From the NCBI GenBank assembly GCA_964388035.1, contig CAYLZE010000050.1, positions 1 through 33,922 of the forward strand: a stretch of DNA of 33,922 nt, in the 5' to 3' direction. Made by a program: the position numbers and the translations under genes. Shown here in pieces: positions 173-22,354 of this stretch; position 1 is the first letter of the stretch; every line of letters begins with the position of its first letter. The notes under the pieces were generated by a model that saw only the letters and a program-made list of their open reading frames with translations, did not search any database and was not told the DNA's origin. This stretch comes from an uncultured archaeon. Lineage in GTDB: Archaea > Asgardarchaeota > Lokiarchaeia > Sigyniarchaeales > SOKP01.

Positions 173-1394
173 ATTAATAAAAATAATGGAACCGAGACTG
201 ATTTTAGCACAAAATATATCATCATCACCTCATATAATATAAGCGGAGTCGTAGAAAAAAGCGATATTGTGGGAGCTATATTCGGCCAAAGATTATAAAA
301 AAGAGCCTTATCGGCTTATCGGCTAAACAGAAGGCCTTCTTTTAGATCTAGACTTAAGAGATTTACAAAAGTCGGGTCGAATAGGGCGGATTGAAGTAAC
401 CTTAGAATCAAAGGAAGGTCAAACGGAAGGAATCATTAAGATTCCAAGTAGCCTCACAAGAAAAGAAACTGCGCTTCTCGCGGCAACAGTAGAAACGGTC
501 ACGCGTGTTGGTCCCTGTGAAGCAGAAATCAAATTAAGGGAAATAAAGGATGTTAGAGAGAGCAAGCGGAAAAAAATCATAAAGCGTGCAGCCGAATTAT
601 TAAAAGAATGGGATAATAAGTCTTTAGAATCAAGTGAAATTGAGGAAAAAATTGATAAGGACATTAATTTAGGAGAAATTATAGCTTGGGGTCCTGATAA
701 TTTACCAGCAGGACCTGATGTTGAGAATAGCGATGAACTTATTATTGTTGAAGGTCGTGCGGATGTACTGAATCTTTTAAGGATAGATGTTAAAAATACG
801 GTTGCCGTTCAAGGCACAAATGTTCCCAAATCTGTAATGGATTTGACCCGAAAAAAGAAATCTGTTATTGCTTTCGTGGATGGAGATAGAGGGGGCACTA
901 TAATTTTAAACGAGCTCCAGCAAGTGGCAAAATTAGATTATATAGCAAGAGCCCCCGAAGGATTTGAAGTTGAGGAACTTACCCGTAAACAATTAATAAA
1001 AGCTTTACAAAATAAAAGATCCATCAAAGGAGAAGTAATCGAGCAAGTCGAACCATCTGTACCCGTGCCTAATCCTAAAGATGATGCTTTAACAAAAATG
1101 TTAAACAAGGTAAAAATTAAGAACGGGAAAAATCTCATGGATACGGTTCATTCCATTCAAGCGGGTCAAGCAATTGGTTTCGATAAAGAGGGTCAGAAAT
1201 TATTTGAAATCCCTGTTTCAGAACTTTATGAAAAAATTGAAAATCATGCGGATTTACAGGGTTTAGTGATTAATGGCATTCTAAGCGAGAGATTGCTGGT
1301 TCTTTTAATGAAAATGAATGTTTCTTTTGTTTCTTGCCGCAATAAAGAAGAAGATTTAATGATTCCCAATAAACTTTCTGTCTATTTTTTCTAA
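173..1394 (+). CDS. dnaG: Archaeal DnaG (TOPRIM, exosome-associated), split by a 37-nt BHB intron; join(173..289,327..1394), ~394 aa; start uncertain
   Basis: Exon 1 reads ...STKYIIITSYNISGVVEKSDIVGAIFGQ and ends at 289. Exon 2 starts at 327 with TEGLLLDLDLRDLQKSGRIGRIEV and is open into the 837..1394 ORF, with TOPRIM motifs IVEGRADV and FVDGDRGG. No in-frame ATG upstream; ATT at 173 chosen because it follows SD-like GGAAGTGA. Confidence 0.9.
290..326 (+). other. Predicted BHB-type mRNA intron in dnaG (37 nt)
   Basis: Central helix GGCC(284-287)/GGCU(321-324); bulges AA|A (288-290) and AA|A (325-327); intron stem GAU/AUC; exon pairing UUC(281-283)/GAA(330-332). Removal restores GAIFGQ-TEGLL. 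Confidence 0.85.
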
Positions 1395-4678: not shown

Positions 4679-5140
4679 TTAAGCGAGATAGACCACTACC
4701 AGCCCATCAACATTTTTGGTGGCTCTTACTTTTAACTTTCTTGGAGGTTTATGTATCCCACGTTCCCAGATTTTTTCGTTAACTTCTTGAGAGATAACGA
4801 TTGATTCTGGTTTAAAATGCCTTGTCATGTAATCTCGTAAATATCTAATGGATTTCTTGGCCCATTTATTTCGAGGACCTCTTCTTGCTTTCGCGAGAGG
4901 GATAGTATAAATTCGCTCATCTATTATTTCTACTTCCGGAGCTTCTTCAATTTCCTCTTCTTCTTCCACCTCTTCTTCTAGCAGTTCTTCGATTTCTTCT
5001 TCTTCGGTAATTTCATCTAAACTGAACTCCTCGATTTCCTCAATTTTCTCTTCTTTTTCTTCTTTTTCCTCCTTCTCGTCTCCTTCAGCCAATTCTTCTT
5101 CTAAATCATCTAAACTTATTTCTCGCTTTTTTTTTGCCAT
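4679..5140 (-). CDS. rpl31e: 50S ribosomal protein L31e with long acidic N-terminal extension
   Basis: ERIYTIPL...VNEKIWERGIHKPPRKLKVR; GGAG upstream supports the 5140 start. Confidence 0.93.
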   Translation of the reverse strand: MAKKKREISLDDLEEELAEGDEKEEKEEKEEKIEEIEEFSLDEITEEEEIEELLEEEVEEEEEIEEAPEVEIIDERIYTIPLAKARRGPRNKWAKKSIRYLRDYMTRHFKPESIVISQEVNEKIWERGIHKPPRKLKVRATKNVDGLVVVYLA

Positions 5141-5169
5141 ATTCTCTCCTTCCATTAATTATAAGTGAA

Positions 5170-5331
5170 TTAATCCTTCTTTAAACGAGTATTTCTCCAT
5201 CCTCTCCGGGTATAGGGGCTATCTCTTACTTTACCGTTTGTTTTTAAAATTACCCAACGAGGTATCGAGCCACTTTCCTTCAACTTTTTAGCTCTCCTTA
5301 GCTTGGATGGAAGATCTTTATTTCGTGCCAT
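5170..5331 (-). CDS. rpl39e: 50S ribosomal protein L39e (53 aa, absent from ORF track)
   Basis: Manual translation MARNKDLPSKLRRAKKLKESGSIPRWVILKTNGKVRDSPYTRRGWRNTRLKKD; immediately upstream of L31e. Confidence 0.93.
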   Translation of the reverse strand: MARNKDLPSKLRRAKKLKESGSIPRWVILKTNGKVRDSPYTRRGWRNTRLKKD

Positions 5332-5353
5332 TTTATTAAGTATTCTGTTATTT

Positions 5354-5698
5354 TTAAAATCGTTTAATATTAAAATCTTTTTTCTTGTTAGATTGAGCTA
5401 TTTGTTCTAATAAGTTTTTAAAAGCTTCATCTGGTAATGGAGTCTTTCCGCGTAATCGTCCTGCTCTATACAATTGAATTAATTGCAATTCAATTTGTTC
5501 AGCAAATTCCGCTTTAACCATCCTGATATTTTCTAACCGTTGACGTGCTTCAGAACTGAGAATGATTCTCATTATCTGGTATTTTTGATCTTCGTAGGAT
5601 TTTCTTTGCTGATCGGCAATTTGTTGCTGCATGGCTTGTTGTTTAATTTGTTCGAGTTTTCTCCTTCTGATTTCTTCTAAATCCTCTTCTTCACTCAA
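5354..5698 (-). CDS. PDCD5-like dsDNA-binding protein
   Basis: DLEEIRRRKLEQ...ILSSEARQRLENIRMVK..FAEQIELQLIQL; TTG start after GGAGTGA. Confidence 0.92.
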   Translation of the reverse strand: MSEEEDLEEIRRRKLEQIKQQAMQQQIADQQRKSYEDQKYQIMRIILSSEARQRLENIRMVKAEFAEQIELQLIQLYRAGRLRGKTPLPDEAFKNLLEQIAQSNKKKDFNIKRF

Positions 5699-5731
5699 TT
5701 TTATTCACTCCAACAAGCTATTTTATTAGAA

Positions 5732-17173: not shown

Positions 17174-18577
17174 ATGAGTGAAAAAGAACCTCTAAAAATC
17201 ACGCGACGAATGCGTTTTGCATTTGCAACGGGTGAAGTGGGAGATAATACGGCTTTAAACATTTTCAACTTCTTGATCTTTACTTTTTATTTCACGGTGG
17301 TAAAATTACCCGTTTTATGGATAACTACAGGCTTTATCATCTGGAGTTTTTGGAACGCGGTCAACGACCCTTTAACGGGATACTTTTCAGACCGGACCAG
17401 AAGTAGATGGGGTCGCAGAGTGCCTTGGATGATGGTTGCCGTAATCCCATTAGGCGTGTTAATGATATTACTTTTTACACCTCCTATTAGTTTTGGAGAT
17501 GCTTCTAATGTGGCCAATTTCATCTATTTCCTACTGATCCTTGTTCTTTTTGATACAATATATACTGCAATCAATTTGAACTATAATGCCCTTTTTTCTG
17601 AAATGTTTGTAGAAATGAAAGATCGAAGCGCCACGGGCAAAGTTCGCATTACTTTTGTGATGTTGGGAACCATTTTTGCATATCTATTTCCAACCTTTAT
17701 TATCCAGGATATAACGAATAAATTAAATGATCCCATAACAATAACCCAATACCAAATAACGGGACTTATTGCGGGAATTGTTGTACTCATGGCTTATTTC
17801 ATAATTTTAAAATGGGGCGTTCGGGAACCAAAAGTGTTTTCAAAAGATGCTGAGACGGCAATGAAATTTATTCCTACATTTAAAAAAGCCTTTCAGAATA
17901 AATCATTTCTCTGGTTTTTATTTCCCGCCTTAGGAACTTGGATGGTAATAGGTATCTTGCCAACATTAGCTCCACTTTTCATGACTTATGGAATTGGAAT
18001 CGAGGATACTGAATTAATTGGTGTCGTTCTTTTAGTCATTTTTCTTGCATCTGCATTTTCCACGCCATTATGGGAAAAAATTCGAGTTAAGTGGGGTGCA
18101 CGAATGTCTGGCTTGATAGGAATCATTGTATGGATGGTTCCTGTGCTATTTTTCGCATTCTCGACGAGTTTTGAAATGGCTATAATTATTGCAATTTTTG
18201 AAGGGATAGGATTAGGAGGAGGACTTTATTTTTACGACCAATGCATCGCAGAAATAATAGATGAGGATGAAATTAAATATGGAACGAGAAGATCCGGCAC
18301 GTATTACGCCGTTATCAATTTTTTGATTCGGCTAAGTTCTGTATTAAACTTTGTAATTATTGGGCTCGTATTTTCTAGCTCAGATTGGCAAACTTATGTT
18401 CCGAATCCCGGAGTTGATACGATTTTTGCCCTTAGAATGTTAATGGGGGTATATCCAATGATTGTCCTGGCAATCTCAGCAATTGGTTTGTATTTCTATC
18501 CAATTCATGGGCAGAGATTAATGGAAAATAGGCAAAATTTGACAGAATTACATCAACAAAAAAGAAGCAAGCTTTAA
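17174..18577 (+). CDS. MFS glycoside-pentoside-hexuronide (MelB-like) transporter
   Basis: ~12 TM; NAVNDPLTGYFSDRTRSRWGRR; DEDEIKYGTRRSG. Confidence 0.88.
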   Translation: MSEKEPLKITRRMRFAFATGEVGDNTALNIFNFLIFTFYFTVVKLPVLWITTGFIIWSFWNAVNDPLTGYFSDRTRSRWGRRVPWMMVAVIPLGVLMILLFTPPISFGDASNVANFIYFLLILVLFDTIYTAINLNYNALFSEMFVEMKDRSATGKVRITFVMLGTIFAYLFPTFIIQDITNKLNDPITITQYQITGLIAGIVVLMAYFIILKWGVREPKVFSKDAETAMKFIPTFKKAFQNKSFLWFLFPALGTWMVIGILPTLAPLFMTYGIGIEDTELIGVVLLVIFLASAFSTPLWEKIRVKWGARMSGLIGIIVWMVPVLFFAFSTSFEMAIIIAIFEGIGLGGGLYFYDQCIAEIIDEDEIKYGTRRSGTYYAVINFLIRLSSVLNFVIIGLVFSSSDWQTYVPNPGVDTIFALRMLMGVYPMIVLAISAIGLYFYPIHGQRLMENRQNLTELHQQKRSKL

Positions 18578-18879
18578 GATTAAATAATTTTTCTTCTTTT
18601 TATTTTTATTTGTCATTAATATCCTTAGTGTTTGAACTTTTGAATGGATTAATTTGAATTTATAAAAAGATTAAGAGCTAAATATAGCATTATTTGAAAG
18701 TGTTGATTACTATTTCCCTTGATTTTTTTTATTAAAAAAATATTCAATTATGATGCTCTCCAACCGAATTACCTTAAATTAACTGTCTTTCTTATTAATA
18801 AAATAAATAAAATAAATACAAATTAATCAAATGGATGATTTTAAATATTTAAAATAATTGATAAAAAAGTCAAAATAAT

Positions 18880-20087
18880 ATGAAAGCAATTGAATTAAAA
18901 GCAAAATGGGACCCTAAACCGAATTTTAAATTAGGACCTAAAGATATCGAAGGAAAATTAACATATTTAGGTTCACAAGTATGGAGAAATCCTTCGATAA
19001 ATGTGGTGGAAAAACAAAAGCCAACGATTAAGGCTAATGAGGTACTAATTAAGGTGAAACGATGTGGAAATCTTGAAAATTATTTTTCAAGACCATAATA
19101 TGTGGTTCCGATGTGCACATGGCGCAAACACATGAAGACGGATATATATTTTATCCCGGTCTTACTGCCTTTCCCGTAACTCTTGGACATGAATTTTCAG
19201 GAGAAGTCTCTGAAGTGGGGGAAAAAGCCATCAATAAAAGAACGGGCAAACCATATGAACTCGGAGAACCAGTCACAGTAGAAGAAATGGCCTGGTGTGG
19301 AGAGTGTAGACCATGCTGCGATGGATTTCCAAACCACTGCGAGCGACTTCAAGAAATAGGTTTTTCAATTGATGGTGCATTTGCTGAATACATCGCAGCC
19401 CCCGCAAAATTATGCTGGAGTTTGAAAAAATTACAGGGAAAATATGAGGATATTTATAAAATAGGAAGTTTGGTGGAACCGACATCGGTTGCGTATAACG
19501 CCGTCATCGAACGGGGAGGTGGCATACGCCCGGGAGAAAATGTTATTATTTTAGGAGGAGGTCCAATTGGCATTGCTGCAACGGCAATTTTGAAAAGAGC
19601 AGGGGCTGGTATTTGTATTTTATCGGAACCGAATGAGCATAGAGCTCGCTTGGCAAGGAAAATGGGTGCCGATTATATTATTGATCCCTCAAAAGAGAAT
19701 TTTGTTGAAAAAGTTAAAGAATATACCGATAGAGAGGGGGCTGCTATCTATTTAGAAGCAACGGGACTTCCTCATATAGTTACTGATGACATCCAGAATG
19801 CTATTTGGGAATGTAAAGCAGTTAATAGTACCGTTGTTATTGTCGCCAGAGCAGAGCAGAGAATGCCTATAATTGGTGAATATTTTCAAGTAAAAAGGGC
19901 TCGAATAGTTGGTTCACAGGGTCACAGTGGACATGGGACGTTTCCTAATGTCATTAGTTGCATGGCCACGGGAATGGACATGTCTCCCATGATAACAAAG
20001 GAGATAAAGCTCGAAGAAGTAAGTGAAAATCTAAAAAGACTTCAAACCGACAGAGAAAACTGCAAGATATCCGCTAAATTAGGATAA
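18880..20087 (+). CDS. iolM: Scyllo-inosose 3-dehydrogenase (Zn-dependent MDR), split by a 29-nt BHB intron; join(18880..19069,19099..20087), 392 aa
   Basis: N-terminus AKWDPKPNFKLGPKDIEGKLTYLGSQVWR closely resembles Thermotoga IolM as I recall it. Spliced motif KRCGICGSDVHM; GHEFSG; structural-Zn CGECRPC...C; GGGPIG. Confidence 0.9.
19070..19098 (+). other. Predicted BHB-type mRNA intron in iolM (29 nt)
   Basis: Helix GUGG(19064-67)/CCAU(19093-96); bulges AA|A and AA|U; perfect 9-bp intron stem UCUUGAAAA/UUUUCAAGA; exon pairs AU/AU. Confidence 0.92.
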
Positions 20088-21356: not shown

Positions 21357-22354
21357 ATGACCGATTGGAATTTACCTCCTAAAGGAGGGCATATGGACCT
21401 CCCTGATGGAATCTATCTTCAAACCATGAATATTGCGGAAATAAGGGAGCGGGTTAAAAAAAATGATGTAATAATAATTCCCGTGGGCTCAACGGAAAAT
21501 CACGGTCCTGCGGCATGTATTGGAGAAGACACTTTTTTAGTAACCCGAATGGCAGAATTAGTAGCTCAAAAAACGGGATGCACGGTAGCACAGCCAACTT
21601 GGTATGGATCTCACCCATATCATCACGTGGGAATGCCTGGATCGATTATCGTGCCAGAAGAAATCTTTAAAGGTTTATTAAGAGCTGTAATGGCAGGTTG
21701 TTGGAATATGGGATTCAGGAAGCAAATAAAAACTTCTTTTTTTGCTTGAAAATGATCCTCCTGAATGGACATGGTCAGGAATATGTTATTCCCTCTGCCA
21801 TCCATGAATTTGCTAAAATTTATCAATTACCCATGGTCGTGTGTAATGTAAATTGGTATCATGCCATTCCCGAATATTGCAAAGATAAAGCACATGGTGG
21901 TCCCTTTGAAACCCCTTTTATCCACGCAGATGAGGCTGAAACTTCCTTTTCAATGACTTTATTCCCTGAAATGATTAAAAAGATCGATCTTAGTCGGGAT
22001 AATAAAATACAAGGTTGGATGCCTGAAGGACACGTGGATAAAGCGGGAAATGTATATAATAAACCAATTAAATGGTATGGGCAAGTAGGATTTAGTCCAA
22101 TTGAAGTCTCAGCTTATCCAGAAGGGCATGTTGGTTCTCCAAGTAAAGCCACTTTTGAAAAAGGAAAACCTGGAATGGACGCGCTTCTGAATTACTTGGA
22201 AAAGTTGGTTAATGATATTTTAAAAACTTTTCCCCCCGGGAAATTACCTCCGATTGAAGGCATTACTCAACGAGACCCTGAAGAAATACAAGCTTACTTG
22301 AAAGGACCTCTTAATGGAGGAAAAAGCATATATGAATTGCGATATCCTCCTTAA
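21357..22354 (+). CDS. iolN: 3-dehydro-scyllo-inosose hydrolase (creatininase family), split by a 29-nt BHB intron; join(21357..21721,21751..22354), 322 aa
   Basis: PVGSTENHG, GEDT, spliced GFRKMILLNGHGQE, HADEAETS; two overlapping ORFs each carry half of the domain. Confidence 0.88.
21722..21750 (+). other. Predicted BHB-type mRNA intron in iolN (29 nt)
   Basis: Helix CAGG(21716-19)/CUUG(21745-48); bulges AA|G and AA|A; intron stem CAAA/UUUG; exon helix GGAUU/GAUCC. A 29-nt deletion is what frame and motif spacing require. Confidence 0.8.

Follow-up and report, generated by a model that had tools for sequence, protein, structure and literature searches.

The 33,922-nt contig analyzed here (GenBank CAYLZE010000050.1; the whole stretch is referred to as the window) comes from an uncultured Asgard archaeon and carries an iolM gene interrupted by 29 nt. 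This insert is, with high probability, a bulge-helix-bulge (BHB) intron that is removed from the mRNA by tRNA-splicing enzymes. The intron reading, proposed in an earlier note on this DNA, was supported by eight other orthologs with an insert at the same position (site A), by purifying selection on the exons, and by the presence of genes for the endonuclease EndA and the ligase RtcB in the genome. The window (contig C50) is part of a 5.47-Mb metagenome-assembled genome (MAG), G000, with 33% G+C, 96.7% completeness and 7.3% contamination.

Geometry and register of the insert in iolM

The iolM locus consists of two open reading frames (ORFs) on the same strand, 18880-19098 (72 aa) and 19113-20087 (324 aa), with a frameshift between them. 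The second ORF contains ADH_N and ADH_zinc_N domains, matched the NCBIfam profile NF041097 (IolM) from position 70 to 386 of 389 with 407 bits, and matched PDB entry 3ip1 with an E value of 4.8e-143. Exon 1 (first 63 codons) matched positions 1 to 64 of the same profile with 66 bits. The curated whole-protein cut-off of NF041097 is 450 bits, and the two pieces of the split gene were scored separately; the uninterrupted ortholog of the same-genus genome G001, which is 85% identical, reached 504.9 bits. On these profile matches, the gene is an IolM-type Zn-dehydrogenase (scyllo-inosose 3-dehydrogenase), and the name that the earlier note had given it is sound. The features of the locus, all on the forward strand, are as follows.

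18880-19069 (+): exon 1 of iolM; spans 63 codons and the opening base of the codon for Ile, and includes the first Cys of the zinc motif CGICGSD (ORF list, NF041097, and tblastn collinearity with orthologs)
19064-19067 (+): 5' strand of the central BHB helix, GUGG, exonic, in the Cys-Gly codons; columns 18 to 21 of alignment A1, invariant in 9/9 intron-bearing orthologs
19068-19070 (+): 5' bulge, AAA; predicted cut after 19069
19070-19098 (+): 29-nt predicted intron; shifts the frame, and its TAA (19096-19098) ends the upstream ORF
19071-19092 (+): inner intron hairpin, 9/9 Watson-Crick pairs (19071-19079 with 19084-19092), loop TTAT
19093-19096 (+): 3' strand of the central helix, CCAU, intronic; pairs with GUGG, including one G-U pair
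19097-19099 (+): 3' bulge, AAU; predicted cut after 19098; AAT invariant in 9/9 site-A homologs
19099-20087 (+): exon 2 of iolM through the stop codon; identity to the same-genus ortholog, 85%

The motif is thus built of two 3-nt bulges on opposite strands with a 4-bp helix between them, each bulge lying 3' of a helix strand, and every element that had been described for it, from the 9-bp hairpin with its 4-nt loop to the GUGG/CCAU helix and the two bulges, was present both in the sequence and in the fold computed by RNAfold (-15.5 kcal/mol; z = -2.67), which was equalled by none of 200 shuffles. In a whole-genome scan, BHB motifs whose inner helix had 5 bp or more occurred at a rate of 1.3e-4 per position and length; when at least 9 inner and at least 2 outer base pairs were required, the rate fell to 4.9e-7.

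Excision of positions 19070 to 19098 yielded a 392-aa ORF that contains KRCGICGSDVHMAQ and in which CGICGSDVH is restored, as had been claimed. The earlier note further proposed that neither ORF fragment would be active by itself. Among the BHB registers lying up to 30 nt on either side, a single one reproduced the product defined by the ortholog alignment, and the cut points proposed earlier (19069/70 and 19098/99) coincide with it; the 4-bp register of the central helix alone yields the conserved product. Because of the flanking AA repeat, removal of 19068-19096 or 19069-19097 gives an identical product, three equivalent registers being permitted at the site. A cut after the second nucleotide of each bulge gave the ortholog-defined coding sequence in all nine site-A sequences, that of the window included.

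Homologous inserts and selection at site A

Orthologs of iolM with 78 to 85% identity were found in 24 of 60 related genomes, the majority of them, including that of G001, being uninterrupted at site A. The comparison set comprised 97 unique archaeal sequences drawn from the related genomes and from public genome and metagenome contigs. When aligned to uninterrupted IolM proteins, the spliced product was collinear over residues 1 to 391 with the 24 related-genome orthologs and with about 90 unique archaeal sequences, and the junction was free of gaps.

Eight divergent Promethearchaeota orthologs (L137, L146, L047, L039, L049, L050, L057, and L122) carry a homologous insert of 29 or 30 nt at the identical position, and the standard cut rule gave the correct product in all eight. 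Across the nine site-A sequences, 98.8% of the cells of the inner hairpin were paired, and 83% of those of the central helix. Three compensatory pairs were observed (U-A/G-C, U-A/A-U, and G-C/A-U), the wobbles were of a kind (G-U) that fits the sense strand only, and the covariation score was reached by none of 500 shuffles. The BHB model as a whole was 89.6% paired, versus 42 to 50% for slid controls. Judged by its covariation, the site-A structure has been maintained in evolution.

The exons bear marks of constraint while the insert is present. In the two groups in which all members are carriers (the clade L039/L049/L050/L122 and the pair L137/L146), the ratio of nonsynonymous to synonymous substitutions (dN/dS) was 0.10 to 0.20 at a dS of 0.14 to 0.28. 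All intron-bearing iolM genes (15/15) were open after removal of the insert, and the comparison of G000 with G001 gave proportions of nonsynonymous and synonymous differences (pN and pS) of 0.09 versus 0.78 in both exons. Such purifying selection in the presence of the insert indicates that the gene is functional and therefore that the insert is removed or bypassed during expression.

The second of these routes would be programmed translational bypassing, known from T4 gene 60 and the mitochondrial byp elements, in which the ribosome would skip the 29 nt; a short coding gap able to form a hairpin does follow a GGA codon. However, the take-off codon GGA differs from the ATA before the resume codon, both in the window and among the homologs; GGA is not immediately followed by a stop codon; and all the sites are explained by BHB geometry and an EndA-style cut rule. 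We consider bypassing highly improbable.

A perfect 9-bp inverted repeat between AA flanks, in a MAG with 7% contamination, might also be taken for an assembly artefact or for a small mobile DNA palindrome resembling a miniature inverted-repeat transposable element. This too is very unlikely. A 1,066-nt Logan contig from a second, independent run (X2 record 11) spans positions 18209 to 19274, and hence the insert exactly, with 0 differences, and no contig joining across the locus without the insert was found among the second-run DNA contigs. The insert occurs in eight other assemblies and its G-U pairs suit a sense RNA only. It is single-copy in the genome, since blastn-short matched its own locus only and the best other match was 19 nt long. 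We know of no transposable element as small as 29 nt.

Further intron sites in the iolM family

Two more intron positions were found in iolM sequences. Site B, located 14 nt beyond site A in the downstream direction, was occupied in one genome, where the motif is a textbook hBHBh' (outer helix 8 bp, inner helix 10 bp). At site C, close to codon 337, eight sequences are interrupted by inserts of 28, 29, or 30 nt with four compensatory pairs. This mixture of in-frame and frame-shifting lengths argues for removal from RNA, as RNA-level excision predicts. The carriers of sites B and C, taken jointly, are L004 (G013), L008, L020, L023, L117, L137, L145, and L146; in L137 and L146, sites A and C are both occupied.

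On a tree of the exons, site A and site C each require at least five gains or losses, and the site-A intron is common to distant lineages but absent from the nearest genome (G001). The introns have either been lost precisely many times or have spread among orthologs.

Inserts in other genes of the genome

At least seven other genes of G000 contain BHB inserts in the same register. Two of them lie in the window.

21722-21750 (+): iolN insert, 29 nt; helix CAGG/CTTG, bulges AAG and AAA; IolN profile 1-113 / 110-307
290-326 (+): dnaG insert, 37 nt, between AIFGQ and TEGLL; helix GGCC/GGCU, both bulges AAA

In both, the central helix is fully paired (4/4) and the bulges are A-rich, and the register is among the few by which the protein is restored. 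Exon 2 of dnaG begins at position 27 of the DnaG profile, and the equal tblastx offsets on either side of the insert suggest that G001 shares a dnaG insert of the same length. The remaining five inserts, all of 30 nt, lie in genes in which the coordinates of the Pfam profile run on across the insert.

C45:19136-19165: NAD synthase (nadE); profile 4-143 / 144-242
C47:27882-27911: MoCF_biosynth (MoCF/CinA-type domain); profile 2-66 / 67-143
C149:3761-3790: FGGY_N (FGGY kinase); profile 1-78 / 79-245
C5:29388-29417: Epimerase (NAD-epimerase); profile 1-126 / 135-240
C32:9825-9854: Glycos_transf_3

The gene iolN encodes a 3-dehydro-scyllo-inosose hydrolase of the creatininase family. Its insert was found in G000 alone, all 24 gene-bearing relatives, including G001, being uninterrupted, and is thus either a G000-specific gain or a lesion. 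This raises the question of whether the iolM insert is itself an inactivating insertion, iolM and iolN together having become recent pseudogenes in G000. G001 has both genes uninterrupted, the two inserts are the sole insert differences in 165 kb of synteny between G000 and G001, and no RNA run is among the sequencing runs matched to the locus, all of which would fit such a decay. However, the iolM insert shares both its position and a homologous sequence with the inserts of eight orthologs whose exons are under the constraint described above, the G000 gene has no other lesion and a low pN against G001, and the BHB register equals the required excision exactly. Moreover, core genes of the same genome, such as dnaG and nadE, have similar inserts. 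We regard a recent pseudogene as improbable.

Predicted splicing of the iolM transcript

The genome contains two EndA paralogs, encoded at L027:1165-1770 and L028:1201-1800, and one RtcB gene (552 bits) in L029. Both EndA proteins are about 200 aa long and have an N-terminal as well as a catalytic domain. Asgard EndA has been assigned to the (alpha-beta)2 type, with an L1 loop that is linked to broad specificity (PMC5829648), and a recent preprint reports two EndA paralogs in most Asgard genomes together with many tRNA introns. Heavy interruption of Asgard tRNA genes has been reported (bioRxiv 10.64898/2026.10.13.758758). From these genes and the geometry of the insert, we infer that EndA and RtcB act on the iolM RNA and that splicing occurs in the organism. 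In the pathway envisaged, iolM would be transcribed with the insert in place, and the exonic GUGG would pair with the intronic CCAU to leave a 3-nt bulge on each strand, with 4 bp between the two, beside the 9-bp intron hairpin. The two-subunit EndA would then cut after the second nucleotide of each bulge, and RtcB would join the exons. Translation of the mature mRNA would give the 392-aa enzyme with its CGICGSDVH zinc site intact, and the excised 29 nt would be released, probably as a circle.

Several observations weigh against splicing by these enzymes. With respect to the flanking helices of a strict hBHBh' motif, the inner one is a perfect 9 bp and the outer one, between the two exons, is made of two A-U pairs only and is not conserved (61% paired across the homologs). 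Given this weak outer helix, the motif is a relaxed BHB, for which the description "near-ideal" in the earlier note was too strong, and a relaxed substrate would require an EndA of broad specificity. The minimum free energy structure from RNAfold adds a fifth central pair, U19063-A19097, which shifts the 3' bulge by one base, and five 30-nt homologs have a G.A mismatch at the central G-C pair adjacent to the hairpin. The same-genus G001 lacks the site-A intron, the runs matched to the locus yield DNA contigs only, and, judged from the G000 sequence alone, a very recent loss of function in this genome could have occurred. The whole-genome census of strict-geometry candidates likewise showed no clear excess over its control. 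In this census, ORFs were merged by excision at motifs in which all four central pairs (4/4) and no fewer than 5 inner base pairs were formed, and a mirror geometry served as the control; hits and control hits numbered 126 versus 104 over all lengths, and for lengths of 29 to 31 they numbered 9 versus 8 at 80 codons and 19 versus 10 at 67 codons.

The weak outer helix, and a central helix that is imperfect in some homologs, would also suit excision from the RNA by a nuclease other than EndA or by another hairpin-recognizing system, with RtcB or another ligase joining the ends. An excision that depends on RtcB and is triggered by inverted repeats is known from animals (SOS splicing, PMC12779559). 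Against this, 3-nt bulges 4 bp apart stand exactly at the required cuts in iolM, iolN, dnaG, and the five further genes, a spacing that is the defining ruler of EndA, and no candidate for an alternative enzyme was identified. Removal by such a system is therefore unlikely, and cleavage by EndA is the reading that we retain.

Regarding the tRNAs of G000, ARAGORN with intron search called 22 in this 97%-complete genome, 15 of them with introns of 8 to 81 nt, which suggests that many tRNA genes are too interrupted for calling. One of the predictions is an intron-containing tRNA-Pyl(CUA) at 54735-54839. A gene with a B12-binding domain (C66:8176-8214, minus strand) has an in-frame TAG within a stretch that is otherwise conserved (..GIAV*DLGVDVTPEQF..), and pyrrolysine decoding is possible.

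Genome-wide scans and number of introns

The census cannot serve for estimating the number of introns, because adjacent co-directional genes supply a background. Among candidates picked from it by eye for motif continuity, those with n = 30 were confirmed in all cases (5/5) by continuity of the Pfam profile. None of five other picks (n = 22 to 30) gained such confirmation: adjacent separate genes accounted for two, two gave an ambiguous picture, and the last lacked a Pfam match on both sides. Since only iolM and iolN differ across the 165 kb of synteny with G001, tens of introns per genome are more likely than hundreds. Extrapolation to the whole genome from the three introns of the window was rejected as biased, the remaining 130 kb or so of the synteny having no lineage-specific insert.

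A search of the same synteny for conserved regions without a start codon produced candidates that were nearly all false. Positions 4679 to 5722, which resembled a three-piece gene, were read as three separate genes, for a PDCD5-like protein, L39e, and L31e, and a candidate on contig C39 was read as the natural C terminus of topoisomerase VI A. At C22:16782-16806 (L206), the ORF of a Sugar_tr transporter starts at position 141 of the 452 of the Pfam profile; the matching upstream piece was absent from the frame that the scan proposed, and this could be one more split gene, whose boundaries differ.

Genomic context of iolM

The closest named relatives of the iolM gene are in MAGs of Promethearchaeota/Promethearchaeia (Asgard), and the DNA runs that match the locus are salt-marsh metagenomes. 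Its neighbors are an MFS_2 transporter, an IolO-like epimerase, and IolN, so that the partners expected of the Thermotoga-type inositol route (IolN, IolO, and a transporter) are all found. The IolO match to NF041099 was 226 bits, under its cut-off of 300, and the IolN profile NF041098 was matched in two pieces near iolM.

The nearest non-archaeal IolM homologs (L078-L109 and L148-L189; 59 to 69% identity) belong to Aerophobetes, Thermoanaerobacterales, Thermotogaceae, and Anaerolineae, and this distribution points to an inter-domain transfer of the Thermotoga-type inositol cluster. The bacterial copies all match as one stretch of about 966 nt, without added length.

Contigs C200, C204, and C197 of G000 are short and G+C rich, with reading frames rich in Ala, Arg, and Gly, unlike the remainder of the genome with its 33% G+C, and are probably contamination of the bin.

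Significance and comparison with known systems

We place the iolM insert, with considerable confidence, in the known class of archaeal pre-mRNA BHB introns. Beyond this gene, we lean slightly toward the view that Asgard genomes hold a dynamic population of introns of about 30 nt in normal protein-coding genes, perhaps some tens in each genome. The tRNA machinery would splice them, and they would undergo recurrent gain and loss or pass from ortholog to ortholog at a fixed site. If true, the closest known relatives of eukaryotes would have a spliceosome-independent exon-intron gene architecture, possibly regulatory like that of XBP1/HAC1. Very probably, mRNAs of everyday metabolic genes and of core genes are substrates of the Asgard tRNA-splicing machinery too, and their introns would combine long persistence under selection with turnover between close relatives. 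Gene callers split or truncate such genes, here into fragments of 72 and 324 aa, so that Asgard proteomes and metabolic reconstructions miss functional enzymes. With three sites that are present or absent among relatives, the iolM family offers a tractable system for the study of non-spliceosomal intron gain and loss near the eukaryotes.

The intron of cbf5 pre-mRNA in Crenarchaeota (Watanabe 2002; Yoshinari 2006; Yokobori 2009, PMC2738675) has for more than twenty years been the sole published BHB intron within an archaeal coding sequence, as PMC7714728 states. In the openly available literature that was searched, coding-sequence BHB introns were likewise reported for crenarchaeal cbf5 only, in addition to a case in a 5' untranslated region (5'UTR) of Haloferax; none was reported for Asgard mRNAs. 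Like that of cbf5, the iolM insert is a short coding-sequence intron with BHB junctions. The cbf5 intron is cut by the tRNA splicing endonuclease in lineages with hetero-oligomeric EndA, and its gain and loss among related species resemble those in iolM. The two differ in that the host phylum is Asgard instead of Crenarchaeota, with splicing here predicted from sequence, and in that iolM encodes a peripheral sugar-catabolic enzyme, probably exchanged with bacteria, whereas cbf5 encodes an RNA-modification enzyme. In addition, unlike in cbf5, introns occupy three positions in the iolM family, and the genome has several more genes that are interrupted.

In motif, cut rule, size class, and the presumed use of EndA and RtcB, the iolM insert is also similar to the BHB introns of archaeal tRNAs and rRNAs. 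However, its host is an mRNA, with no tRNA body to aid recognition, and its central helix is made of protein-constrained coding sequence, the Cys-Gly codons. An archaeal mRNA as substrate of EndA, as predicted for iolM, has a precedent in HVO_1309 of Haloferax volcanii, where cleavage of the 5'UTR BHB intron by EndA was confirmed in vitro (PMC7714728). That intron lies in an untranslated leader, whereas the one in iolM breaks the reading frame, so that splicing would be obligatory for the protein.

A more distant parallel is found in eukaryotes, where a tiny, frame-shifting, hairpin-defined intron is likewise removed with no spliceosome and a tRNA ligase seals the ends. The XBP1/HAC1 mRNA is cut by IRE1 and ligated by RtcB or Trl1, the XBP1 intron being 26 nt long and defined by hairpins. 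The endonuclease and the recognition motif differ from those predicted for iolM, and XBP1/HAC1 splicing is a regulated stress response.
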